Assembly: GCA_964016885.1 (NCBI GenBank) | Contig: OZ024751.1 | Location: 23,684,001-23,748,000 of the forward strand | Reading direction: 5' to 3' | Origin: Eledone cirrhosa | Taxonomy: Eukaryota | Length of the DNA stretch: 64,000 bases | Shown here: in pieces, positions 6,014 to 64,000 of the stretch | Position numbering within the stretch: the first letter of the stretch is position 1 | Layout of the letters: each line of letters opens with the position of its first letter | Position numbers and translations under genes: made by a program | The notes under the pieces: generated by a model | What the model saw: only the letters and a program-made list of their open reading frames with translations | Database searches by the model: none | Told to the model about the DNA's origin: nothing

Positions 6014-7213
6014 ATGAAGATGTTGATAAACTATTTTGTTTTAATCCTGACAGCAACTCTATCGCTAGTAAATCTCAGCCCTACGCACGTAGATGAAATT
6101 CAACTACATACTAATTTGTTATCCACTTATAACAAACAAATAAGGCCTGTTTTAAATTTGAATAAATCTGTCGATATAGAGGTTCTGTTACTCCTTAAGA
6201 CGCTCTATAATTTCGATTTTGTAAATAACCGACTAATTGCACAATACTTCATTATCTTCTACTGGGAAGATGAACTGCTGAGATGGAATCCAGAAGATTA
6301 CCATAACCTCACACGTACATACTTACCGAAAGCTAAGGTATGGACACCAGATTTCATAATGTGTAATTCAATGAAGGAATCAGACGATAAAGATAGTTTT
6401 CCCGAGGTAATAGTTTATAATGAAGGGTGGATAGAAATGCGGGCAATAAAATCAGTAGAGACATATTGTGAAGTAGATGCTTACAACTACCCATTTGATA
6501 AACAGGAGTGCCCAATCACCATATGTGTCGCTGTGCACGAACCTCAGCATACCAAATTTGTATCAATTAATTGCGAGGTTTATGAATTTGAAAATAACTA
6601 CCAATGGGGTATCAGCATGGATGGTCAAGTATACCCAAAGAACGACAAATACAGCTCCGTAACAGCTATGATGTTCTTACGACGTAAACTCAAAGTAGGT
6701 ATTTTGGCTATGCTAATTCCAACTGTAATGATGACACTTTTAACTATCTTTGTGTTTCTGCTGCCCCCTGAATCAGGAGAGAAAGTCTCTTTAGCAACAA
6801 CGATATTTTTATCAAATGTCTTATACCTCGTTCAAATAGATAAAACGACGCCTAAAAGCTCAAAATCCCCTTCACTTCTGATGTTGTATTTAATGTTGTT
6901 ATCAATGTGCAGTGGAGTTGCCACACTTGGTTCAGTGGTTATCAGTAAATTGTATGTAAACCAATCAGCTAAAGAAAAGAATTCTTCGGCTTTAGATCAA
7001 AATAATACCAAACCTCACGGTAACAAAATTGCTGATGTTTCACTAATTTCCACAGCACAACCTTATCCTGCCATGACACAGGAAAGGTCAAAGTTAAAAC
7101 AATGGTTCTCTGACTACGTACGACTGGATGATATATTTCTAAAACTTAGCGTTGTATCAACAATAATTATTGCAATATTATTTGTAAGCTTGTTGTTTAC
7201 AGCTCCGGATTAA
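6014..7213 (+). CDS. Chemotactile receptor (CRT-type, atypical nAChR-like Cys-loop cation channel subunit), paralog 1, 399 aa
   Basis: First ATG 6014; signal peptide, IRPV, WxD..L.WNP, Cys-loop C-x13-C (CEVDAYNYPFDKQEC), no loop-C CC, PPESGEK before M2, four TM segments; uninterrupted CDS. Confidence 0.93.
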   Translation: MKMLINYFVLILTATLSLVNLSPTHVDEIQLHTNLLSTYNKQIRPVLNLNKSVDIEVLLLLKTLYNFDFVNNRLIAQYFIIFYWEDELLRWNPEDYHNLTRTYLPKAKVWTPDFIMCNSMKESDDKDSFPEVIVYNEGWIEMRAIKSVETYCEVDAYNYPFDKQECPITICVAVHEPQHTKFVSINCEVYEFENNYQWGISMDGQVYPKNDKYSSVTAMMFLRRKLKVGILAMLIPTVMMTLLTIFVFLLPPESGEKVSLATTIFLSNVLYLVQIDKTTPKSSKSPSLLMLYLMLLSMCSGVATLGSVVISKLYVNQSAKEKNSSALDQNNTKPHGNKIADVSLISTAQPYPAMTQERSKLKQWFSDYVRLDDIFLKLSVVSTIIIAILFVSLLFTAPD

Positions 7214-10335: not shown

Positions 10336-11504
10336 ATATATTAGTTATAGGCGAAGATATTTATGCAAAAAGTATTATAAAAGATTTTATGAAGTTTATG
10401 TAGAAAATGTTAATATCTATAGTTATGGCGTGTGTAACCAATACGTATAGAGTTGTAAAGTTCAAACAATATATATAAAACAAACATTTAATGTTGTGAT
10501 TACATTTGTAGTACTAAATCGATGTCTTTGTTTCTGTGTCACAATTGGTGTTTCGTTATTATCCTTTATAAACAGTGGTATATATTGATTGAATGTATGT
10601 ACAAATAATGTAGATGATATTTGACATTCCTCAAAGTTCAAACAAAAGATTGCAAAAAACCTTAAGTTTGTGATGGTGTTAACAGATTAAAATTGACAGT
10701 TAGATTTTGAAGAGGTTTAATAAAGAGAGTTAATTAAATAAGGGAGGTAATTATGAAAAGTGAAAAATTATATATTACAAATCTATAAACAATATATATA
10801 TTTTATATTATTTCTATATTTATTTCTATATATTTATAAATTAATTAATTAATTAATTAATTTAGTTATTTATTTATTTATTTATCCTTTTCCAAATTGT
10901 TTAAAGAATGTCGAAGTATTATTATGGAGAGGAATTTATTCAGTAGTGGATTAAAGTATGTATCTAATTTATGAACACTATTACTAGCTAGTTATTGAGT
11001 GTTATATTTATTCAAAAATGAAATAATAAAATGGAAGATACTTTAAGAAGGATAATATTGGAAGGTACATAATGTATTTATTTAATCTATTTTAAGGGAA
11101 TAATGTATAAATAAAGTATAAGATCTGTAGTAGAGAAAAGAAGTTACAAAAAGTGTATTACTATATTAAGATTTTGGAAATAGTTTTATTATCAAGTGAG
11201 AAAAGAGGATATAGGATAAAAATATATATATGTGTATATATATATTGGCACTGTGGCTGTAGTATGTGATTGAGTTGTTGCCAGCTTTGTGTTAGTGTCT
11301 GAAAGCTGGTCACCATTAGCATAGATTATAATTTTGAATCTTTGATTTATATTGTATTTTCTAACAAGTCTCTCTTTGATTTCAGGTAGACGATTCTTCT
11401 GGTTACTATAAAACCTTGTATATCTGTAACAGAGACTTATTTCTTCAATAAGAACCTAAGAACTTGAAAACTACTATTTCCTGCAGATATTGTTACTGAA
11501 ATAT

Positions 11505-11628
<124 letters not shown>

Positions 11629-11811
11629 ATCTATCGTGATATATGTATATATCGCGATAAATTAACGAAGCCATAGACTCTCGCTATTCCCTGTCAATAT
11701 ATATATGTATATATACTCTGCATGTGCATCGAATATTCATTCATTTCGTGGTTGTCACAAGTGATTTACTAAATAACATACATTTACACACACACACACA
11801 CACGCATACAC

Positions 11812-11893
<82 letters not shown>

Positions 11894-12195
11894 GCCAGAC
11901 AGACACATACACATATATTCATATATAATGAAACACGACTTCCTAAATGATAAAAAAGAGGGACTATTTAATATATTATTATATAATACTCGTATATGTT
12001 AACAATCTGTTCTTATTATAACTTTTGCTTGCCCCTATAACAGTGACCTAACACTTACTAAATGAAACACATAAAACTTTGACAAATTAATATTTATATT
12101 TATTAGAGAAAGTTAATATTTAATGGAGTGAATTTATATGTATCAGAGACACATTAATACAAAAACTAACATTGGCTCGTTTACAAATAGGAAAG

Positions 12196-13395
12196 ATGAA
12201 GATGTTGATAAACTATTTTGTTTTAATTCTGACAGCAACTATATCGCTAGTAAATCTCAGCCCTACGCGCGAAGATAAAATTCAACTACATACTAAGTTG
12301 TTATCCACTTATAACACACAAATAAGGCCTGTTTCGAATTTGAATAAATCTGTCGATATAGAGGTTAAGTTATACCTTGACACACTCTATAATTTCGATT
12401 TTGTAAATAACCGACTAATTGCAAAATACTTCATTTTCTTTTGCTGGAGAGATGAACTGCTGAGATGGAATCCAAAAGATTACCATAACCTCACACGTAC
12501 ATACTTACCGAAAGCTAAGGTATGGACACCATATTTCATAATGTGTAATACAATGAAGGAATCAGACGATAAAGATAGTTTTCCCGAGGTAATCGTTTCT
12601 AATGATGGGCGGATAGAAATGCTGGCAGTAAAATCAGTAGAAACATATTGTGAAATAGATGCTTACACCTACCCATTTGATAAACAGGAGTGCCCAATCA
12701 GCATATCTGTCGCTGTGCACGAACCTCAGCATACCAAATTTGTATCAATTAATTGCGGGGTTTTTGAATTTGAAAATAACTACCAATGGGGTATCAGCAT
12801 GGATGGTCAAGTAGACCCAAAGAACGACAAATACAGCTCCGTAACAGCTACGATGTTCTTACAACGTAAACTCACACTAGCTATTATGGCTATGCTAATT
12901 CCAACTGTAATGATGACAATTTTAACTATCTTTGTGTTTCTCCTGCCCCCTGAATCAGGAGAGAAAGTCTCTTTGGCAACAACGATATTTTTAGCAAATG
13001 TCTTATACCTCGTTCAAATAGATAAAACGACACCTAAAAACTCAAAATCCCCTTCACTTCTGATGTTGTATTTAATGTTGTTATCAATGTGCAGTGGAGT
13101 TGCCACACTTGGTTCAGTGGTTATCAGTAAATTGTATGTAAACCAATCGGCTAAGGAAAAGAATTCTTCGGCTTTAGATCAAAATAATACCAAACCTCAG
13201 GGTAACAAAATTGCTGATGTTTCACTAATTTCCACAGCACAACCTTATCCTGCCATGACACAGGAAAGGTCAAAGTTAAAACAATGGTTCTCTGACTACG
13301 TACGACTGGATGATATATTTCTAAAATTTAGCGTTGTATCAAAAATAATTATTGCAATATTATTTGTAAGTCTGTTGTTTACAGCTCCGCATTAA
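12196..13395 (+). CDS. Chemotactile receptor (CRT-type), paralog 2, 399 aa
   Basis: Same architecture as paralog 1; Cys-loop [15 protein letters not shown]; GEK motif; intact ORF. Confidence 0.93.
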   Translation: MKMLINYFVLILTATISLVNLSPTREDKIQLHTKLLSTYNTQIRPVSNLNKSVDIEVKLYLDTLYNFDFVNNRLIAKYFIFFCWRDELLRWNPKDYHNLTRTYLPKAKVWTPYFIMCNTMKESDDKDSFPEVIVSNDGRIEMLAVKSVETYCEIDAYTYPFDKQECPISISVAVHEPQHTKFVSINCGVFEFENNYQWGISMDGQVDPKNDKYSSVTATMFLQRKLTLAIMAMLIPTVMMTILTIFVFLLPPESGEKVSLATTIFLANVLYLVQIDKTTPKNSKSPSLLMLYLMLLSMCSGVATLGSVVISKLYVNQSAKEKNSSALDQNNTKPQGNKIADVSLISTAQPYPAMTQERSKLKQWFSDYVRLDDIFLKFSVVSKIIIAILFVSLLFTAPH

Positions 13396-18667: not shown

Positions 18668-19867
18668 ATGAAGATGTTGATAAACTATTTTGTTTTAATC
18701 CTGACAGCAACTCTATCGCTAGTAAATCTCAGTCCTACGCGCGAAGATAAAATTCAACTACATACTAAGTTGTTATCCACTTATAACAAACAAATAAGGC
18801 CTGTTTCGAATTTGAATAAATCTGTCGATATAGAGGTTAAGTTATACCTTGACACACTCTATAATTTCGATTTTGTAAATAACCGACTAATTGCAAAATA
18901 CTTCATTTTCTTTTGCTGGAGAGATGAACTGCTGAGATGGAATCCAAAAGATTACCATAACCTCACACGTACATACTTACCGAAAGCTAAGGTATGGACA
19001 CCATATTTCATAATGTGTAATACAATGAAGGAATCAGACGATAAAGATAGTTTTCCCGAGGTAATCGTTTCTAATGATGGGCGGATAGAAATGCTGGCAG
19101 TAAAATCAGTAGAAACATATTGTGAAATAGATGCTTACACCTACCCATTTGATAAACAGGAGTGCCCAATCAGCATATCTGTCGCTGTGCACGAACCTCA
19201 GCATACCAAATTTGTATCAATTAATTGCGGGGTTTTTGAATTTGAAAATAACTACCAATGGGGTATCAGCATGGATGGTCAAGTAGACCCAAAGAACGAC
19301 ATATACAGCTCCGTAACAGCTACGATGTTCTTACAACGTAAACTCACACTAGCTATTATGGCTATGCTAATTCCAACTGTAATGATGACACTTTTAACTA
19401 TCTTTGTGTTTCTCCTGCCCCCTGAATCAGGAGAGAAAGTCTCTTTGGCAACAACGATATTTTTAGCAAATGTCTTATACCTCGTTCAAATAGATAAAAC
19501 GACACCTAAAAACTCAAAATCCCCTTCACTTCTGATGTTGTATTTAATGTTGTTATCAATGTGCAGTGGAGTTGCCACACTTGGTTCAGTGGTTATCAGT
19601 AAATTGTATGTAAACCAATCGGCTAAGGAAAAGAATTCTTCGGCTTTAGATCAAAATAATACCAAAGCTCAGGGTAACAAAATTGCTGATGTTTCACTAA
19701 TTTCCACAGCACAACCTTATCCTGCCATGACACAGGAAAGGTCAAAGTTAAAACAATGGTTCTATGACTACGTACGACTGGATGATATATTTCTAAAATT
19801 TAGCGTTGTATCAAAAATAATTATTGCAATATTATTTGTAAGTCTGTTGTTTACAGCTCCGCATTAA
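18668..19867 (+). CDS. Chemotactile receptor (CRT-type), paralog 3, 399 aa
   Basis: Intact ORF; differs from paralog 2 at six residues by my count. Confidence 0.93.
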   Translation: MKMLINYFVLILTATLSLVNLSPTREDKIQLHTKLLSTYNKQIRPVSNLNKSVDIEVKLYLDTLYNFDFVNNRLIAKYFIFFCWRDELLRWNPKDYHNLTRTYLPKAKVWTPYFIMCNTMKESDDKDSFPEVIVSNDGRIEMLAVKSVETYCEIDAYTYPFDKQECPISISVAVHEPQHTKFVSINCGVFEFENNYQWGISMDGQVDPKNDIYSSVTATMFLQRKLTLAIMAMLIPTVMMTLLTIFVFLLPPESGEKVSLATTIFLANVLYLVQIDKTTPKNSKSPSLLMLYLMLLSMCSGVATLGSVVISKLYVNQSAKEKNSSALDQNNTKAQGNKIADVSLISTAQPYPAMTQERSKLKQWFYDYVRLDDIFLKFSVVSKIIIAILFVSLLFTAPH

Positions 19868-22122: not shown

Positions 22123-22203
<81 letters not shown>

Positions 22204-22284
22204 GTAATAATAAATTTGATTATTTGCTTAAACTTTAATCTGTTATTTTAATAATATATATATATATTTATATATATATATATA

Positions 22285-22915
22285 CTAGCTGAATTATCCG
22301 CGCCTTGTGCCGTTTCACACATTTTCTCTAAGAAAATGATGATTGATTTTAAATCAGTGACATAATTTATGGAGAAAAACTCTGCATTTCAATGTTACTC
22401 AATGTAAAATGTAATGCATGAAAAACTGCAAAACATTATGTTTTGTAATATATCAAATCTAAATTATATTATTAAATCTTACTCTTATTTTGTGTCTTGT
22501 AGATAATCCTTTTCAAAATATAAATTCAAACCTTTTGTGAATAGGCAACATATCTTGTCATCTACCTATAGTTTACATTTCATATAAATAGAAGGGAAAA
22601 CATTTCAGCCGGGGTTTGTGCCTCCGGGAACCCTAATAGGCGCTTTAACCCCCATTAGGGAGTCGTAGTATTATTGAAATTTGCTGAAATTTTGTGAATA
22701 AACATCATATCCTCTCATTTACCTTTGGTTTAAAATTCATATAAATCGAAGGTTAAGAAGATTCAGCGGGGATTTATGCCCCTGGAGAACCCTTTGAATA
22801 AAATAAAATATACTTATCCAAGTACCCTGGGCAATGTAGTTTCAGAATATATATGGTTATATAACCATAGAAGTAGTTCTAGAACAAACAAACAGACAGA
22901 AATACAACTTTATAT
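22285..22915 (-). mobile_element. Non-autonomous Helitron-like element (copy at ~35581-36213)
   Basis: On the minus strand it begins TATATAAAGTTGTATTTCTGTCTGTTTGTTTG and ends GC-rich ...GGCGCGGATAATTCAGCTAG (CTAG terminus), the layout of Lep1-type Helitrons. Confidence 0.55.
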
Positions 22916-23348
22916 ATATATGTTTATACTTGGGGAGGGTCATATTGTTGTAATAATATTGCCAGAAATAATAACAGAACACACTCACTGTTTGAAAAGA
23001 GTGAGGACCCCGATGGCTGAACTCCGGCCGTTTGGACAGCTAGGTCTGTTCAGACCAAACTGTCCAATCGGCCGGAGCCGTCTTTTGCTATTATCCACTC
23101 CACAATCCTACTTTTTCGACGACCCTTGTAAGTTCTTCTGACGGAAATTGGTAGACTGAATAGAGTAGATTTCTTCCAGAGAAAGATAGAGAGAGAGAGA
23201 AGAAGTGTGAAATAGATATAGAGGAAGAACCTACCCTAGTACTAAGTCACGTTGGCTAATATACTCCTACGTTTAACTAATAGCTTTTGCACTATTTAGA
23301 TTGACGATGAGTTTAACACCATCACCATCACCATCACCATCATTTTCG

Positions 23349-23421
<73 letters not shown>

Positions 23422-23967
23422 TGCCATCACCATCATCACCATCATCATCATTATCATCATCGAGAATAACAACAACCTAATCATTATCCTTGTAGTCAAA
23501 ACAAAGCTAAAAAAAGAAAGCAACAAATCTGTACAAAGGAACTATGGAAAGAAGTCACTAGAAAAAAACGATACCAAGCGACAAATTGATACGAAGATCG
23601 ATTTATTGAATAAGGAAGCGATATAATATATGAAACATCCGGGTTGCTAGAAAACGTATGAGATGAGAGAAAATATATTTAAGCAGCGTTTATTGTTCTT
23701 GACCACATATCATAAGAGTGGTGCTTGTTGGTTTGGGTGGTAATTGTAAATATAAAAATAAATATAAATATATATATACACATATATAACAATACAGATA
23801 CTGACACACACACGCACTCACATGCACACGCACACACATACACACACCCGCACACACACATAGAGATGTATATATATATTCATATAAATATATAGTTTTA
23901 ATACTAGCCCCCATTGCATGCGCGACCATTTTTCTTACCTTATATATATATATTCATATAAATATAT

Positions 23968-24830
23968 AAGGTAAGAAAAATGGTCGCGCATGCAATAGGG
24001 GCTAGTATTAAAACTACCCTAAAGGGCCACATATTCAAATTCAACGAAATGATCTACACCCAAAATGAGGGAGAAGCCATTAGTGTCAGCATAGCTGTGA
24101 CGTTGCCAACCTTTTTATGATATGGTGGGAAAGGAGACTCAAAGATCTCCTTGATGAGAGCTCCATAGACCTCATCATGTACTCTCGTTACGTAGACAAT
24201 ATTAATATAGTAATAAGGACATCCCCACACGAGAGTACTAACAAGTATGATTTAGAATGTAGCACAATGGAAAGCATCCGGCAGATAGCTAACTCCATAC
24301 ACCAGAGTATAACTGTAACTATCGACTACCCTTCCAAACACCCTAACAGTAGACTACCTGTATTAGACACGGAACTCTGGATTAACACTATAGACGCAAG
24401 GCCCAAATTCTCCACTCACACTACGCAAAACCCATGGCCTCCAAAAACCTGATACTCAAAAACTCAGCAATGTCCAGTAGTGCTAAGTTTAATATTGTGA
24501 TCTCAGACTTGGTACGAGTGATGAAGAACGTGTCCCGCATATGCGACCCAACAGAAATGGAAAGACACATCCAACACTTCATCAACCGCATGCAGTTCTC
24601 TGGCCTCAACCAAAGAGACAGAATCAGAGTATACAAAGGAGCCACGGAGAAGTATAAGACCCTGATAGAACTGGACATGAAAGTAATTTGTCCATTATAC
24701 AGGAGCAAATCATGGAATAGCTTAGATAGGGAATGCCACCTCACGGTACGACAATCTGGAGGGAAATTAGCTAACCAGTGTAGAAAGGCTCTGAGAAAGA
24801 CCCGGTTAAAAATTAAAGTGGTAGAAAAGT
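23968..24830 (+). pseudogene. Penelope-like element reverse transcriptase fragment (frameshifted)
   Basis: FKFNEMIYTQNEG.AI, YSRYVDNI (catalytic D mutated), LPVLDT and YAKPMASK motifs spread over shifted frames. Confidence 0.75.
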
Positions 24831-25091
24831 CACGCAAACGCAAACGCATGCGCAGAGAAGAAGACAAAAATAAATAAATAAATAAACAAATAAAATGAAA
24901 ATGGCGTACATATGTCTCCCTCACCATCCTCTAGGGCAGCGTTTCCTCCCTTCTGTTCGCTGGGACCATCAGACAGATATTAATAATTGATATTTATCAG
25001 AAATTGTGTGAAAGGACCTACAACACTCATCTAAGGTTTTATCAAAATTGAATATCTGTAAGTGATTATGTAATTGACCAATGTATATTAT

Positions 25092-25165
<74 letters not shown>

Positions 25166-29801: not shown

Positions 29802-30998
29802 ATGATGTTGATAAACTATTTTGTTTTAATCCTGACAGCAACTCTATCGCTAGTAAATCTCAGTCCTACGCGCGAAGATGAAATTCAACTACATACTAAC
29901 TTGTTATCCACTTATAACAAACAAATAAGGCCTGTTTCTAATTTGAATAAATCTGTCGATATAAATGTTGAGTTATACATTGACACACTCTATAATTTCG
30001 ATTTTGTAAATAACCTACTAATTGCACGATACTTCATTATCTTTTACTGGGAAGATGAACTGCTGAGATGGAATCCAGAAGATTACCATAATCTCACATA
30101 TACATTCTTACCGAAAGCTAAGGTATGGACACCAGGTGTCATAATGTGTAATACAATGAAGGAATTAAACGATAAAGATATATTTTTACAGGTAATAGTT
30201 TATAATAATGGGTGGATAGAAATGAGGACACAAAAATTAATAAAGACATATTGTGAAGCAGATGCTTACACCTACCCATTTGATAATCAGAAGTGTCCAA
30301 TCACCATATGTGTCGCTATGCACGAACCTCGGCATACTAAATTTATTTCAATTCAGTGCTATTTCAATACAACGGATAAAAACTACCAATGGGGTATGAG
30401 GATGGATGGTCAAGTAGGCGCAAATATGGACAGATACAGCTACGTAACAGCTTCGATATCCTTACAACGTAAACTCACACTAGCTATTATGGCTATGCTA
30501 AGTCCAGCTATAATGATGACACTTTTAACTATCTTTGTGTTTCTCCTGCCCCCTGAATCAGGAGAGAAAGTCTCTTTAGCAACAACGATATTTTTATCAA
30601 ATGTCTTATACCTCGTTCAAATAGATAAAACGACGCCTAAAAACTCAAGATCCCCTTCACTTCTGATGTTGTATTTAATGTTGTTATCAATGTTCAGTGG
30701 AGTCGCCGCACTTGGTTCAGTGGTTATCAGTAAATTGTATGTAAAGCAATCAGCCAAGGAAAAGAATTCATCGGCTTTAGATCAAAATAATACCAAACCT
30801 CAGGTTAACAAAATTGCTGATGTTTCACTAATTTCCACAGCACAACCCTACCCCATCATGACACAGGAAAGGTCAAATTTAAAACAATGGTTCTCTGACT
30901 ACGTACGACTGGATGATATATTTCTAAAACTTAGCGTTGTAACATCAATAATAATTGCAATATCATTTGTAAGTTTGTTGTTTACAGCTCCGGTTTAA
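29802..30998 (+). CDS. Chemotactile receptor (CRT-type), paralog 4, 398 aa
   Basis: First ATG 29802; Cys-loop [15 protein letters not shown]; GEK; four TM segments; intact. Confidence 0.93.
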   Translation: MMLINYFVLILTATLSLVNLSPTREDEIQLHTNLLSTYNKQIRPVSNLNKSVDINVELYIDTLYNFDFVNNLLIARYFIIFYWEDELLRWNPEDYHNLTYTFLPKAKVWTPGVIMCNTMKELNDKDIFLQVIVYNNGWIEMRTQKLIKTYCEADAYTYPFDNQKCPITICVAMHEPRHTKFISIQCYFNTTDKNYQWGMRMDGQVGANMDRYSYVTASISLQRKLTLAIMAMLSPAIMMTLLTIFVFLLPPESGEKVSLATTIFLSNVLYLVQIDKTTPKNSRSPSLLMLYLMLLSMFSGVAALGSVVISKLYVKQSAKEKNSSALDQNNTKPQVNKIADVSLISTAQPYPIMTQERSNLKQWFSDYVRLDDIFLKLSVVTSIIIAISFVSLLFTAPV

Positions 30999-35205: not shown

Positions 35206-35532
35206 TAAAATAACAGATTAAAGTTTAAGCAAAGAATCGCTGCTTTCACCCTTAACGGGGTCTTCTGAAACTAACAAAGTCAATCTGTAAACGCAGAACT
35301 GGATATTTCAAAAAACGTTGCAACCGGAGGAAGGCAGGAAGACGATACTTTGGTATATATATATATATTTATATGTAATAATAATAAATCTGAAGACAAA
35401 AATCCATATGTATATATATGTATACAGCGATTCATTGCATAAACTTTAATCTGTTATTTCAATATATATATATATAGTGTAATAATAATAAATTTGATTA
35501 TTTGCTTAAATTTTAATCTGTTATTTTAATAA

Positions 35533-35581
<49 letters not shown>

Positions 35582-36640
35582 TAGCTGAATTATCCGCGCC
35601 TTGTACCGTTTCACAGATTTTCTCTGTAAGAAAATGATGATTGATTTTAAATCAGTGACATAATTTATGGAGAAAAACTCTGCATTTCAATGTTACTCAA
35701 TGTAAAATGTAATGCATGAAAAACTGCAAAACATTATGTTTTGTAATATATCAAATCTAAATTATATTATTAAATCTTACTCTTATTTTGTGTCTTGTAG
35801 ATAATTTTTTTCAAAATATAAATTCAAACCTTTTGTGAATAGGCAACATATCTTGTCATCTACCTATAGTTTACATTTCATATAAATAGAAGGGAAAACA
35901 TTTCAGCTGGCGTTTGTGCCTCCGGGAACCCTAATAGGCGCTTTAACCCCCATTAGGGAGTCGTAGTATTATTGAAATTTGCTGAAATTTTGTGAATAAA
36001 CATCATATCTTCTCATTTACCTTTGGTTTCAAATTCATATAAATCGAAGGTTAAGAAGTTTCAGCGGGGATTTGTGCCCCTGGAGAACCCTTGGAATAAA
36101 ATGAAATATACTTATCCAAGTACCCTGGGCAATGTAGTTTCAGAATATATATGGTTATATAACCATAGAAGTAGTTCTAGAACAAACAAACAGACAGAAA
36201 TACAACTTTATATATATATGTTTATACTTGGGGAGGGTCATATTGTTGTAATAATATTGCCAGAAATAATAACAGAACACACTCACTGTTTGAAAAGAGT
36301 GAGGACCCCGATGGCTGAACTCCGGCCGTTTGGACAGCTAGGTCTGTTCAGACCAAACTGTCCAATCGGCCGGAGCCGTCTTTTGCTATTATCCACTCCA
36401 CAATCCTACTTTTTCGACGACCCTTGTAAGTTCTTCTGACGGAAATTGGTAGACTGAATAGAGCAGATTTCTTCCAGAGAAAGATAGAGAGAGAGAGAAG
36501 AAGTGTGAAATAGATATAGAAGAAGAACCTACCCTAGTACTAAGTCACGTTGGCTAATATACTCCTACGTTTAACTAATAGCTTTTGCACTATTTAGATT
36601 GACGATGAGTTTAACACCATCACCATCACCATCATTTTCG

Positions 36641-36701
<61 letters not shown>

Positions 36702-37266
36702 TGCCATCACCATCATCACCATCATCATCATTATCATCATCGAGAATAACAACAACCTAATCATTATCCTTGTAGTCAAAACAAAGCTAAAAAAAGAAAG
36801 CAACAAATCTGTACAAAGGAACTATGGAAAGAAGTCACTAGAAAAAAACGATACCAAGCGACAAATTGATACGAAGATCGATTTATTGAATAAGGAAGCG
36901 ATATAATATATGAAACATCCGGGTTGCTAGAAAACGTATGAGACGAGAGAAAATATATTTAAGCAGCGTTTATTGTTCTTGACCACAGATGGTAAGAGTG
37001 GTGCTTGTTGGTTTGGGTGGTAATTGTAAATATAAAAATAAATATAAATATATATATGCACATACATAACAATACAGATACTGACACACACACGCACTCA
37101 CACGCACACGCACACACATACACACCCCCGCACACACACCCCCGCACACACACATAGAGATGTATATATATATATATTCATATAAATATATAGTTTTAAT
37201 ACTAGCCCCATTGCATGCGCAACCATTTTTCTTACCTTATATATATATATATTCATATAAATATAT

Positions 37267-38130
37267 AAGGTAAGAAAAATGGTCGCGCATGCAATAGGGG
37301 CTAGTATTAAAACTACCCTAAAGGGCCACATATTCAAATTCAACGAAATGATCTACACCCAAAATGAGGGACCAGCCATTGGTGTCAGCATAGCTGTGAC
37401 GTTGCCAACCTTTTTATGATATGGTGGGAAAGGAGACTCAAAGATCTCCTTGATGAGACCTCCATAGACCTCATCATGTACTCTCGTTACGTAGACGATA
37501 TTAATATAGTAATAAGGACACCCCCACACGAGAGTACTAACAAGTATGATTTAGAATGTAGCACAATGGAAAGCATCCGGCAGATAGCTAACTCTATACA
37601 CCAGAGTATAACTGTAACTATCGACTACCCTTCCAAACACCCTAACAGTAGACTACCTGTATTAGACACGGAACTCTGGATTAACACTATAGACGCAAGG
37701 CCCAAATTCTCCACTCACACTACGCAAAACCCATGGCCTCCAAAAACCTGATACTCAAAAACTCAGCAATGTCCAGTAGTGCTAAGTTTAATATTGTGAT
37801 CTCAGACTTGGTACGAGTGATGAAGAACGTGTCCCGCATATGCGACCCAACAGAAATGGAAAGACACATCCAACACTTCATCAACCGCATGCAGTTCTCT
37901 GGCCTCAACCAAAGAGACAGAATCAGAGTATACAAAGGAGCCACGGAGAAGTATAAGACCCTGATAGAACTGGACATGAAAGTAATTTGTCCATTATACA
38001 GGAGCAAATCATGGAATAGCTTAGATAGGGAATGCCACCTCACGGTACGACAATCTGGAGGGAAATTAGCTAACCAGTGTAGAAAGGCTCTGAGAAAGAC
38101 CTGGTTAAAAATTAAAGTGGTAGAAAAGTC
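37267..38130 (+). pseudogene. Penelope-like element RT fragment (duplicate; YVDD intact)
   Basis: QNEGPAIGVS, YSRYVDDI, LPVLDT, KPMASK motifs; same frameshifts as 23968-24830. Confidence 0.78.
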
Positions 38131-38390
38131 ACGCAAACGCAAACGCATGCGCAGAGAAGAAGACAAAAATAAATAAATAAATAAACAAATAAAATGAAAA
38201 TGGCGTACATATGTCTCCCTCACCATCCTCTAGGGCAGCGTTTCCTCCCTTCTGTTCGCTGGGACCATCAGACAGATATTAATAATTGATATTTATCAGA
38301 AATTGTGTGAAAGGACCTACAACACTCATCTAAGGTTTTATCAAAATTGAATATCTGTAAGTGATTATGTAATTGACCAATGTATATTAT

Positions 38391-38433
<43 letters not shown>

Positions 38434-42478: not shown

Positions 42479-43678
42479 ATGAAGATGTTGATAAACTATT
42501 TTGTTTTAATCCTGACAGCAACTCTATCGCTAGTAAATCTCAGTCCTACGCGGGAAGATGAAATTCAACTACATACTAACTTGTTATCCACTTATAACAA
42601 ACAAATAAGGCCTGTTTCGAATTTGAATGAATCTGTCGATATAGAGGTTCTGTTACTCCTTAAGAGACTCTATAATTACGATTTTGTAAATAACATATTA
42701 ATTGCACGATACTTGATTAGCTTTTACTGGAAAGATGAACTGCTGAAATGGAATCCAGAAGATTACCATAACCTCACACGTACATACTTACCGAAAGCTA
42801 AGGTATGGACACCAGGGGTCATAATGTGTAATTCAATGAAGGAATTAAACGATAAAGATATATATCCAGAGGTAGTAGTTTATAATGATGGGCTGATAGA
42901 AATGCCGACACAAAAATTAATAAAGACATATTGTGAAGCAGATGCTTACACCTACCCATTTGATAATCAGAAGTGTCAAATCACCATATGTGTCGCTGTG
43001 CAAGAACTTCGGCATACTAAATTTATTTCAATTAAGTGCCATTTTAATATAACGGATAAAAACTACCAATGGGGTATTAGGATGGATGGTCAAGTAGACC
43101 CAAAGAACGACATATACAGCTCCGTAACAGCTACGATGTTCTTACAACGTAAACTCACACTAGCTATTATGGCTATGCTAATTCCAGCTATAATGATGAC
43201 CCTTTTAACTACCTTTGTGTTTCTCCTGCCCCCTGAATCAGGAGAGAAAGTCTCTTTAGCAACAACGATATTTTTATCAAATGTCTTATACCTCGTTCAA
43301 ATAGATAAAACGATACCTAAAAACTCAAAATCCCCTTCACTTCTGATGTTGTATTTAATGTTGTTATCAATGTTCAGTGGAGTTGCCACACTTGGTTCAG
43401 TGGTTATCAGTAAATTGTATGTAAAGCAATCAGCCAAGGAAAAGAATTCATCGGCTTTAGATCAAAATAATACCAAACCTCAGGGTAACAAAATTGCTGA
43501 TGTTTCACTAATTTCCACAGCACAACCCTACCCCATCATGACACAGGAAAGGTCAAATTTAAAACAATGGTTCTCTGACTACGTACGACTGGATGATATA
43601 TTTCTAAAACTTAGCGTTGTAACATCAATAATAATTGCAATATTATTTGTACGCTTGTTGTTTACAGCTCCGGTTTAA
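42479..43678 (+). CDS. Chemotactile receptor (CRT-type), paralog 5, 399 aa
   Basis: First ATG 42479; Cys-loop [15 protein letters not shown]; GEK; intact. Confidence 0.93.
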
Positions 43679-54170: not shown

Positions 54171-55373
54171 ATGCTCTTAGTAGGCTATTTTGTTGTGATT
54201 TTGACTGCGTTTATATCGAGAGTAATTTCCAGTCCAAATTACAATGATGAAAAAATGGTGCAACATAATTTATTATATAACTATAGCAAATATATACGAC
54301 CTGTTGAAGATTTGAGTAAAAGTACTGATATATATAGTTCCTTGCTTCTTCACACGCTCTATGACTTGGACTTTGGAAATAGCCTTCTTATGGTGCATTA
54401 TTTATTGAGGCATGTTTGGATCGACGAACGGATGAAATGGAATCCAGAGGATTATAACAACATTTCAAATATATACCTACCAAAACATAGTATATGGACA
54501 CCAAGTATCCTAATGTGCAATGCAATGTTGGAATCAGACGTTGATGAGAATTTTAACCAAGTAAAGATTTCTAATAATGGATGGGTAGAAATGTGGTCAT
54601 TTAAATTATTACATACTTATTGTCAAGTCAACGCATACACTTATCCTTTTGATGAACATAAGTGCGAAATTTACATGTGTATCGCTATGTATGAACCTCA
54701 ACATACACGAATTAAAACTCTCCTTTTTACTAATCTAAATTATACAGAAAATTACAAATGGTATATCCACATAGATGGTGAAGTTAATGGCATTGACGCT
54801 TCCTCCAGCTACGCATTTGCCTCAATATTCTTACGACGTAAAGTCACAGTAGGTAATATAGCGATGTTGAGCCCCTTAATAATGATGACCGTTTTAGTTA
54901 TATTTGTGTTTATTCTACCTCCTGAATCAGGAGAGAAGGTTTCTCTGGCTGTGACAATATTTACATCAAACGTCTTGTACCTTGTTCAAATAGATAAGAC
55001 TCTGCCAACAAATTCAAAATACCCTTCACTCTTTATGCTGTATTTAATGTTGTTATCAATGTCAAGTGGATTCGCCACACTTGGTTCAGTGGTTATAAAT
55101 AAATTGTATGTAAACCAATCAGCTAAAGAAAAGAAATCAAAGGTCTTCGACCAACATAATGCCAAAACTCACGGTAATGAAATTGCGGATGTTTCAGTAA
55201 TTTCCACGCCACATCCTTATCCTGTAATGACACAGGAAAAGTCAATATTAAAACGATGGTTTTGTATCCCCGACTACGTAAAACTCGATGACATTTTTCT
55301 AAAATTTAGCGTTGTATTAGGAATAATAGTTTCAATATTATTTATGTCTGCCTTGTTTATACCTCTAGATTAG
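54171..55373 (+). CDS. Chemotactile receptor (CRT-type), paralog 6, 400 aa; M2 9' Thr
   Basis: First ATG 54171; Cys-loop CQVNAYTYPFDEHKC; [18 protein letters not shown]; four TM segments; intact. Confidence 0.93.
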   Translation: MLLVGYFVVILTAFISRVISSPNYNDEKMVQHNLLYNYSKYIRPVEDLSKSTDIYSSLLLHTLYDLDFGNSLLMVHYLLRHVWIDERMKWNPEDYNNISNIYLPKHSIWTPSILMCNAMLESDVDENFNQVKISNNGWVEMWSFKLLHTYCQVNAYTYPFDEHKCEIYMCIAMYEPQHTRIKTLLFTNLNYTENYKWYIHIDGEVNGIDASSSYAFASIFLRRKVTVGNIAMLSPLIMMTVLVIFVFILPPESGEKVSLAVTIFTSNVLYLVQIDKTLPTNSKYPSLFMLYLMLLSMSSGFATLGSVVINKLYVNQSAKEKKSKVFDQHNAKTHGNEIADVSVISTPHPYPVMTQEKSILKRWFCIPDYVKLDDIFLKFSVVLGIIVSILFMSALFIPLD

Positions 55374-57303: not shown

Positions 57304-58539
57304 ATGGAGCTTAAAATTTCCGAAATAATACAGATAATGCTATTAACGTTGTATTTTGCTTTGATTATGTCTCCGAATATATCGGTAGTAAACTCCCAAG
57401 CTACATACGACGATGAAAAACTACTGCATGCTAAATTGTTGTCCAACTATAACAAAGATATAAGACCAGTTATTAACGTGACTACTACTGTTGAATTATA
57501 TACTTTGTTACATCTTAACACGCTCTATGACTTGGACTTTGTAAATAACATACTTAAGAGCCAATTCTACTTTGGAATAATGTGGTCTGATCAACATATG
57601 ACCTGGGACCCAGAGGAATATAACAACATTACATCTATATATCTACCGAAAAATAAGATATGGATGCCAAATATAGCAATGTGTAATTCAATGAAAGAAT
57701 CAGAAGATGCAGACAGTTCTTCAGAAGTCAAAATCTCTTATACTGGATGGATAGAATCATGGTCACCGAAATCGTTACAAACATTTTGTCAAGTAAATGC
57801 TTACACCTATCCATTTGATGATCATATGTGCGAAATTTATGTCTGTGTCGCAATGCACGCTGCTGTACATACGAGAATAAAAACACTCACATACGAGGAT
57901 TTCAATTTTATAAAAAACTATAAATGGCATATTCAATTAACTGGTGTAGTCAATGGCACAGGTGACGACTTCAGCTACGCATTTGCTCAGATGTTCTTAC
58001 GACGTAAAGTCACTGTAGGTATTATTGCGATGTTGAGCCCTTCAATCATGATGACACTTTTAACTATCTTTGTGTTTCTTCTGCCCCCTGAATCAGGAGA
58101 GAAAGTCTCTTTAGCAACAACGATATTTTTATCAAATGTCTTATACCTCGTTCAAATAGATAAAACGACGCCTAAAAACTCAAAATACCCTTCACTTCTG
58201 ATGTTGTATTTAATGTTGTTATCAATGTTCAGTGGAGTCTCCACACTTGGTTCAGTGGTTATAAGTAAATTGTATGTAAACCAATCAGCTAAAGAAAAGA
58301 ATTCATCGGCTTTAGATCAAAATAATACCAAACCTCAGGGTAACAAAATTGCTGATGTTTCACTAATTTCCACAGCCCAACCTTATCCTGCCATGACACA
58401 GGAAAGGTCAAATTTAAAACGATGGTTTTACATCTCTGACTACGTACGACTTGACAACATTTTTCTAAAACTTAGCGTTGTAACATCAATAATAATTGCA
58501 ATATTATTTGTAACTTTGTTGTTTACACCTCTGGATTAA
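57304..58539 (+). CDS. Chemotactile receptor (CRT-type), paralog 7, ~411 aa (start uncertain: 57265, 57304 or 57337)
   Basis: Cys-loop CQVNAYTYPFDDHMC; GEK; four TM segments. ATG 57304 follows an acceptor-like TTACAG. Confidence 0.92.
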   Translation: MELKISEIIQIMLLTLYFALIMSPNISVVNSQATYDDEKLLHAKLLSNYNKDIRPVINVTTTVELYTLLHLNTLYDLDFVNNILKSQFYFGIMWSDQHMTWDPEEYNNITSIYLPKNKIWMPNIAMCNSMKESEDADSSSEVKISYTGWIESWSPKSLQTFCQVNAYTYPFDDHMCEIYVCVAMHAAVHTRIKTLTYEDFNFIKNYKWHIQLTGVVNGTGDDFSYAFAQMFLRRKVTVGIIAMLSPSIMMTLLTIFVFLLPPESGEKVSLATTIFLSNVLYLVQIDKTTPKNSKYPSLLMLYLMLLSMFSGVSTLGSVVISKLYVNQSAKEKNSSALDQNNTKPQGNKIADVSLISTAQPYPAMTQERSNLKRWFYISDYVRLDNIFLKLSVVTSIIIAILFVTLLFTPLD

Positions 58540-63009: not shown

Positions 63010-63388
63010 CAAAGGGCGGAAGAACTCATAAGAGTCAACGGCCATCCAAAAGTGTGTAAATATGTATATACACATGTACCGCACGGTTAAACCACTGGGA
63101 GTGAAGGACACCTAGCCTTTGTCAGGGCATTCTTCTAGGAGAAGGCAACTCAGGAAACTGGGATGACTCCGATATAAAGCCTGCGGCTCAGTAGTTACCA
63201 ATGATGTTGAACTTTTCTTCTTTCGGGTTATAGCTACTGTCGCTCAGAGAGTGGGATTGGCTCAGTGCACAGTCTTTCCTCACTTTAAAAAATATCTTCA
63301 TGCACAGGCATTGCACGATAGAATTACATAATACTTATTAATAATGGTATATCACGCAATGGCCATACTCGATAACGAGGGGGCAGCC

Positions 63389-63432
<44 letters not shown>

Positions 63433-63433
<1 letters not shown>

Positions 63434-63810
63434 GAGGGCACTCCCAAAAGTAAGGTCTCCTTCCGATATTGCAACTTTTCCGTTAAAATCCTGTGGATGG
63501 TGCTTCGGGAAATCTCAGGAAACAAAGTGCAGAGAGCATCCAGAGTGATCCGCCGATCTTTGGGCATGTTTTCCTCGGAAGGAGACCTTAATTTTGGGAT
63601 TGCCCTCGTATATAATAACTTGGCAGCAGCGTTCAACGGGAGCTCCATTCTCAACGGCTGCCAAGCCAAGATTGAGCATCCCAGCGAAGCGCGCGAATGC
63701 TTGTTTGGGAGTGAAGGAAGCAACAATCACAACAGTGTTGCCAACAGCCGTACAAACAGTTTCTCTGCGTCCCCATCGCTTTGGAGACCTTACTTTTCGG
63801 ATTACCCTCC
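63433..63810 (-). mobile_element. Rearranged Tc1/mariner relic with three 28 bp TIRs
   Basis: TA-CGAGGG...AAGTAAGGTCTCC at 63433-63460, inverted copies at 63581-63608 and 63783-63810; minus-strand DRRITLDALCTLFPEISRSTIHRILTEKLQYRK is a mariner HTH segment. Confidence 0.8.
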
Positions 63811-63873
<63 letters not shown>

Positions 63874-63874
63874 T

Positions 63875-63905
<31 letters not shown>

Positions 63906-64000
63906 TAGTTTTGCGAGGTTTTTTATATGAAATCGTGTGTCGAAACAAATATTGTTATACTTGGGGAGGGTCATATTTGTGTAATATTGCCAGAATTAAT

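Follow-up and report, generated by a model that had tools for sequence, protein, structure and literature searches.

Evidence for positive selection at ligand-pocket codons, mainly on the complementary face, in nine young tandem chemotactile receptor genes of Eledone cirrhosa

An intronless cluster of chemotactile receptor (CR) genes has been described in Octopus bimaculoides (PMC9068888; PMC13174522). In CRT1 of that species (PDB 8EIS, 9E6B, 9YI4) ligand contacts have been mutated at L37, Y39, Y58, W122, F124, C150, V151 and A152 and further at L153, E167, D168, S169, E190, L191 and F192, and the substitutions W122L and F124V abolished responses to progesterone and norharmane (bioRxiv 10.1101/2025.10.28.685082). 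Known CR ligands include a carboxylic acid and chloroquine (bioRxiv 10.1101/2025.03.03.641191). In the human alpha7 nicotinic receptor, S36, W55, Q57, Q117 and L119 are complementary-side ligand contacts (PMC3066128). Site models have placed a concentration of positively selected sites in the octopus CR ligand pocket, a result credited to Allard et al. 2023 (PMC11526382). Positive selection at Y39, W122 and L191 is reported in both bioRxiv preprints, whereas Y58 and F124 are under purifying selection in 10.1101/2025.10.28.685082 and positively selected in 10.1101/2025.03.03.641191. The general claim of pocket selection in octopus CRs is therefore already published, and specialists will find little surprise here; the young clade described below is a clean new instance, statistically robust, and its value is practical. 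The published pocket analyses concern deep divergences, whereas here the Y58 and F124 positions vary among young copies. Recombination is strong in the young clade, whereas the main text of 10.1101/2025.10.28.685082 contains neither 'recombination' nor 'gene conversion'; in PMC9068888, 'gene conversion' refers to protocadherins.

We analysed a 64-kb stretch of E. cirrhosa DNA (the window), whose ORF list holds seven intronless CR ORFs of ~400 codons each, all on the + strand and all with PF02931 and PF02932 above the Pfam cut-off. They are g1 (6014..7213, 399 aa), g2 (12196..13395), g3 (18668..19867), g4 (29802..30998), g5 (42479..43678), g6 (54171..55373) and g7 (57304..58539, start codon uncertain). 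g3 is a near-identical duplicate of g2, with 6 amino-acid differences, and g6 is an older CRT-type paralog that served as a comparison gene. A genome search gave 28 matches from 88 candidates, and 24 of these CR-like genes are clustered on one contig (C11) over a span of about 310 kb; thirteen genes in the genome are of CRT type. Nine form a young clade, comprising g1-g5 and four genes upstream of the window, u1-u4 (L003, L004, L007 and L002). In ectodomain DNA the nine have 87-96% identity to g1, and the ectodomain tree unites them with a bootstrap of 100 and a long stem branch (0.54). Their top match among the 27 sequences retrieved from the databases has 57% identity. All nine frames are intact and open, and protein and DNA searches of the genome found no broken copies. 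The 290 bases 5' of the start codon differ by a mean of 3.2% among the young copies. As in the O. bimaculoides array, described as 26 clustered AChR-like genes on chromosome 15 (PMC9068888), the cluster is tandem and intronless. It differs from that array, as far as PMC9068888 describes it, in that nine of its 24 genes belong to a single recent burst and lack close relatives in the set of 27 retrieved sequences.

The best PDB match of g1 was CRT1 (E 1e-135), followed by squid CRB1 (7e-40) and then by 5-HT3A and nicotinic subunits, among them alpha7 (5e-29). An alignment-based model of g2 (pLDDT 78.5) likewise matched the CRT1 fold best (TM 0.79), with CRT1 and CRB1 at Foldseek ranks 1 and 2; a single-sequence AlphaFold model of g1 (pLDDT 44) was not used. 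CRT1 has 56% identity to g1, aligns with it gap-free over the ectodomain, and shares its fold and M2. The sequence of M2 and the acidic motif before it are nearly identical to those of CRT1, and the M2 pore sequence is almost fixed among the nine young genes. All nine have the Cys-loop cysteines C152 and C166. The ectodomains have no cysteine past codon 187 and hence no loop-C vicinal cysteines, and the acetylcholine-binding aromatics of human alpha7 and AChBP are absent too. The canonical acetylcholine site is lost, with C117 at alpha7 Y93 by the offset of the alpha7 match; extending that offset would put A/T173 at the loop-B tryptophan position. The alpha7 complementary-contact positions are conserved in cephalopod AChRs, unlike in the young clade. 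By their architecture, their intronless tandem clustering and their closest relatives, which are CRs and not nAChRs, the nine genes are cephalopod chemotactile receptors. They are not CRT1 orthologs: CRT1 lies outside the nine-gene ectodomain clade, grouping with P0001 and P0004, and the highest identity to CRT1 of any gene in the genome is 64%.

The ectodomain aligns gap-free, and g1 codon numbers equal CRT1 mature residue numbers plus 21. In the alpha7 match, query 2-101 pairs with full-length alpha7 42-141, segments of equal length, and the 5-HT3A alignment sets F79 on the loop-D tryptophan. With the resulting offset of 24, codons 60, 79, 81, 141 and 143 align with alpha7 S36, W55, Q57, Q117 and L119, and codons 77 and 83 with N53 and S59. 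The original prediction had anchored the beta2 sites to alpha7 loop-D positions 53/55/57/59, and this mapping stands, with F79 at W55 and Q77/I81/Y83 at 53/57/59, assuming no compensating gaps. In g1, beta1 (codons 56-62, 6179..6199) contains CRT1 L37 and Y39 at codons 58 and 60; beta2/loop D (codons 76-85, 6239..6268) contains Y58 at codon 79; and beta6/loop E (codons 139-147, 6428..6454) contains W122 and F124 at 143 and 145. In the hypervariable loop F (codons 187-193, 6572..6592), codons 188-190 correspond to E167/D168/S169, and in loop C (codons 207-213, 6632..6652) codon 212 corresponds to L191 and is I, K or R in the clade. All of these CRT1 contacts, L37, Y39, Y58, W122, F124, E167-S169 and L191, are variable positions in the young clade. 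Our pocket set was the full list of 15 mutated CRT1 contact residues, chosen before any codon model was run; these residues are also part of the subunit interface. We divided the set into eight complementary and seven principal sites by standard loop assignments. Twelve of the 15 are variable among the nine genes and nine have at least three states, and 200,000 random sets included none with as much variation.

The peptides quoted in the original prediction for beta1, beta2 and beta6 of g1 lie at the positions just given, with equivalents in g2-g5. The contrast drawn there between g1 and g2 was also reproduced, with 35 residue differences before codon 231 and 7 after (32 and 10 if the boundary is moved to codon 228, where M1 is predicted to begin). 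The strands implied by the g2 model are codons 53-68, 73-85 and 139-151. Variation at every second residue, as had been proposed, is clean in two of the three strands. Among the nine genes, beta1 has 3, 5, 3 and 3 amino-acid states at codons 56, 58, 60 and 62 against 1, 1, 2 and 2 at 57, 59, 61 and 63, and beta2 has 3, 4, 3, 2 and 3 at 77, 79, 81, 83 and 85 against 1, 1, 2, 1 and 1 at 76, 78, 80, 82 and 84. The alternation is imperfect in beta6, where outward codons 139, 143, 145 and 147 vary but E141 is fixed in all nine, and where 142, 144 and 148 vary too. Among the five window genes, 13 of 14 alternating sites were variable compared with 3 of 14 inward partners (P = 0.0003, Fisher). In the four upstream genes, which are out-of-sample, 9 of 14 alternating sites varied, whereas elsewhere in the ectodomain 42 of 192 did (P = 0.0014), and the comparison with their inward partners (4/14) was not significant (P = 0.13). 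Variable sites number 89 of 206 in the ectodomains of the nine, 36 of them with at least three states; the transmembrane and intracellular parts have 41 of 172, of which 4 show at least three. The variable region is not limited to beta1, beta2 and beta6, as the original prediction had it. Loop F, which was overlooked, is equally variable (codons 188-193, with 5 states at 188), and loop C, also beyond the coordinates first considered, is highly variable at codons 207-212. Nor are charge changes a particular feature of the alternating sites: they make up 21 of 50 state pairs there and 51 of 134 elsewhere in the ectodomain, with no enrichment.

In pentameric channels, every second residue of beta1, beta2 and beta6 points to the interface between subunits, and the residues in between pack into the beta-sandwich core. 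The alternating variation would follow from this arrangement, side-chain direction here being assigned by homology to CRT1, alpha7 and AChBP rather than from coordinates.

We fitted codon models to the nine sequences with a purpose-written GY94 implementation, using NEB and fixed relative branch lengths. The M1a/M2a LRT fell from 81 with one segment to 49 with three and 34 with six; omega2 was 7.3, 6.1 and 4.0, respectively, and the selected class held 10-23% of sites. The M8a/M8 LRT was 49. Codons 58, 62, 79, 139 and 188 had NEB >0.95 under all three segmentations. Other selected codons (73, 130, 137 and 219) lie outside the CRT1 contact list. With six segments, the 15 pocket codons had a fixed-site omega of 4.8 (P = 4e-10). 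The complementary eight reached 8.2 and the principal seven 2.0, the latter not significant (P = 0.11); the value was 5.5 at the alternating sites and 0.52 at the inward partners of those sites. The predicted diversifying selection is thus borne out and, at an omega of 8.2 after six-segment partitioning, is centred on the complementary pocket face. An ectodomain-wide dN/dS above 1, against which the original prediction was to be judged, was not upheld with significance: with six segments it was 1.18 and not significant (P = 0.3), or 1.59 in the window five (P = 0.057), and on one tree the whole-ectodomain omega was 1.43 (P = 0.011). Selection is confined to a minority of ectodomain sites and is not domain-wide. 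The rest of the ectodomain had an omega of 0.99 and the transmembrane part 0.54-0.83, indicating weak constraint over the clade with a focused peak. Tree-free pN at the complementary eight was 0.446. Tree-free pS was 0.075 in the ectodomain, 0.088 in the transmembrane part and 0.032 in the 5' flank. Synonymous divergence is therefore equally high in the transmembrane part, and we rejected homogenisation of that part as the source of the contrast between the two domains among the nine.

Correction for recombination, for which the original prediction had called, proved necessary. The PHI test was significant over all sites (P = 0.0002) and over codons without amino-acid change (P = 0.012), and a breakpoint search favoured three segments under BIC and six under AICc. 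We simulated neutral fine mosaics with a new tree every 20 codons. Of 61 runs, 46 were nominally significant at 5%, so the nominal P-values exaggerate significance. None of the 61 reached the single-tree LRT of 81 (maximum 38.6), and the observed pocket divergence was reached in 0/150 and 0/150 mosaics. This calibration covers the single-tree LRT and not the partitioned ones. LRTs of ~21 for the window five and for the upstream four fall inside the neutral range and are not decisive alone. Thus, recombination is strong and inflates site tests, yet it fails to explain the pocket signal. We also rejected the old paralogs g6, g7 and d2 as donors of the pocket codons, since their residues are mostly unlike the young variants; their nearest distance to the young clade is 19-44% all through the ectodomain.

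The explanation that we consider probable is that positive selection has made the pocket codons of nine young tandem CR copies diverge, mainly on the complementary face, and that each subunit has likely gained its own chemical preference on a near-unchanged channel body. Tandem duplication of an intronless CR produced the nine copies, and unequal crossing-over and conversion would have reshuffled pocket segments among them. Selection would have fixed changes at outward residues of the inner beta-sheet and in loop F, the putative complementary wall of the orthosteric site, while the inward residues and the M2 pore stay nearly fixed. Expression would presumably be in the sensory cells of the suckers, and homo- or heteropentamers of these subunits would bind contact chemicals different from the steroids and beta-carbolines of CRT1. 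CR subunits combine into varied multimers (bioRxiv 10.1101/2025.03.03.641191), so a variable complementary face beside a conserved principal face could allow every subunit in a mixed pentamer to add a specificity of its own. Since the principal face is less variable, most of the specificity would come from the subunit that contributes the complementary face.

The same varied multimers would also suit selection on subunit assembly, with the varying face deciding heteropentamer neighbours and not ligand. The selected sites do lie at the subunit interface, and codons 73, 130, 137 and 219 are selected although off the contact list. However, the peak falls on CRT1 contacts whose mutation kills responses with the protein still expressed (bioRxiv 10.1101/2025.10.28.685082), and the principal face should co-vary but its omega is not significantly above 1; we consider this account improbable. 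The CRT1 mutagenesis gives good grounds to infer that the selection acts on ligand specificity. An antagonist could act on the same pocket: escape from a defensive chemical of prey, or from a protein made by a pathogen, that binds at the orthosteric site, rather than tuning to new tastants, would accord with fast, repeated change on an exposed binding face of very young copies, and antagonists contact loops D, E and F in both alpha7 and AChBP (PMC3066128). No such antagonist is named in the literature consulted, and Y39, W122 and L191 are tied to agonist tuning (bioRxiv 10.1101/2025.10.28.685082), which leaves escape very improbable indeed.

A neutral origin, in which relaxation after duplication, gene conversion and multi-base mutation make the pattern, is largely refuted, and its chances lie between those of the two accounts above. 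The gene-wide omega of about 1.0, the PHI result, the frequent nominal significance of neutral mosaics and g7, which proves that large conversion or crossover events occur at the locus, all speak for it. But pN is four to six times pS, beyond the reach of relaxation, and pS at the alternating sites (0.051) is not raised. No simulation attained the observed values, transmembrane synonymous divergence is as high as that of the ectodomain, and the signal is retained with doublet mutations allowed (LRT 34, three segments), so that doublet mutation was rejected as the cause. Assembly artefacts, by which collapsed or duplicated haplotypes or long-read errors create copies or differences, might be suspected from the near-identical pairs g2/g3, u2/u4 and g7/d1, and short-read runs X1-X3 may derive from the assembly's own sample. 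Nevertheless, the variant bases at pocket codons occur in short-read contigs of X1-X3 and so are not assembly errors, g2/g3-type contigs have a depth of about 11-12 compared with about 5-7 for single-gene types, as two loci predict, and an LRT of 47.5 remains after u2 and g3 are dropped. We regard artefact as the most remote of these explanations. Positive selection on the pocket accordingly remains our preferred reading. It is detectable at very low divergence once recombination is modelled, and nine receptors that are 80-99% identical and differ mainly at about twenty pocket residues amount to a natural mutagenesis panel, of use for deorphanising CRs and for finding the interface face that sets specificity.

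The pocket differs from that of CRT1. At the positions of the CRT1 aromatics Y58/W122/F124/F192, each young gene has one or two aromatic residues of four. The W122 position is Arg in six of the nine, Leu in two and Pro in one, and the F124 position is I, L, V or Q and never Phe. g2 and g3 have Leu143 and Val145, the equivalents of the CRT1 null substitutions W122L and F124V, and by this analogy they likely do not share the CRT1 ligands. At least one charged residue occurs among the eight core pocket positions in 8/9 young genes and in 17/27 retrieved relatives; g5 has none, and the core pocket of g4 is the most polar of the clade. Net charge over 14 face residues ranges from -2 to +2, and D62/K77-type pairs, in the expected strand register, may neutralise each other. 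A pocket for polar ligands, as first proposed, is possible in the young clade, although charged pockets are common in other CRs and such a pocket would not be unique. At its outward beta1 and beta2 residues (N56, E58, Y60, D62 and R77; 29964-29984), g4 agrees site by site with P0016, a distant receptor from O. sinensis, a likeness that is possibly convergence.

Two genes, g7 and d1 (L012), are chimeric, with an old ectodomain and, in g7 from ~58048, a young-clade channel domain. Their nucleotide distance from the young clade is 23-47% across the ectodomain and 0-9% from codon 251. Codons 226-250 retain a distance of about 20%; the switch falls near codon 239 and the junction near window position 58048. 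Among fourfold sites, 10-13 of 28-33 differ in the ectodomain and 6-10 of 65-75 in the transmembrane part. The 13 CRT-type genes form one clade by their transmembrane domain (bootstrap 100) and not by their ectodomain, pointing to concerted evolution of the channel domain. With channel domains homogenised within a species and ectodomains not, whole-protein CR trees can mislead.

The ectodomains of all nine young genes contain exactly five cysteines, of which 117, 152, 166 and 187 are fixed and one moves. It is at codon 171 in most genes, at 169 in u2/u4 and at 83 in g2/g3, C83 having been gained and C171 lost in g2; in g1 these codons are at 6524 (171), 6518 (169) and 6260 (83). C117 and C171 are lost jointly in four relatives (P0008, P0016, P0023 and P0024), suggesting that they form a disulfide from loop A to beta7. 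Our literature search, which left the main CR papers and their supplements outside its scope, found no account of this clade, of CR gene conversion, of the g7 chimera or of the moving cysteine; the genome is perhaps among the 30 in a 2025 preprint's Table S6. It is conceivable, though we think it rather unlikely, that the locus is a modular recombining library. Conversion would keep the channel domain and principal face interchangeable and selection would rewrite the complementary face, a greasy CRT1-type pocket giving way to one lined with Arg, Glu and Lys for charged or water-soluble cues, with the mobile fifth cysteine rewiring disulfides.

From a second sample, run X4 yielded one 1,420-base contig (window 12034-13453) spanning the whole g2/g3 frame and no long contig of another paralog type. 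It has five differences from g2, mixes the states of g2 with those of g3, and may represent either a transcript or a recombinant allele. X4 is without cover over most of 10400-11900, which X1 covers, and has no splice joint. u1 has an in-frame six-codon deletion in the intracellular loop and several private transmembrane changes, and is possibly the copy with the weakest constraint. Eleven further divergent intronless CR-like genes extend the cluster (G000:C11 23.82-23.93 Mb), and a single related CR copy lies apart from it on contig C23 (G000:C23:18648368-18648841). Judged by eye, a duplicated block (22184-25126 and 35462-38425) contains fragments resembling a frame of retroelement type at 24084-24874, with a copy near 37400-38200, and a transposase-like fragment lies at the end of the window (63332-64000).
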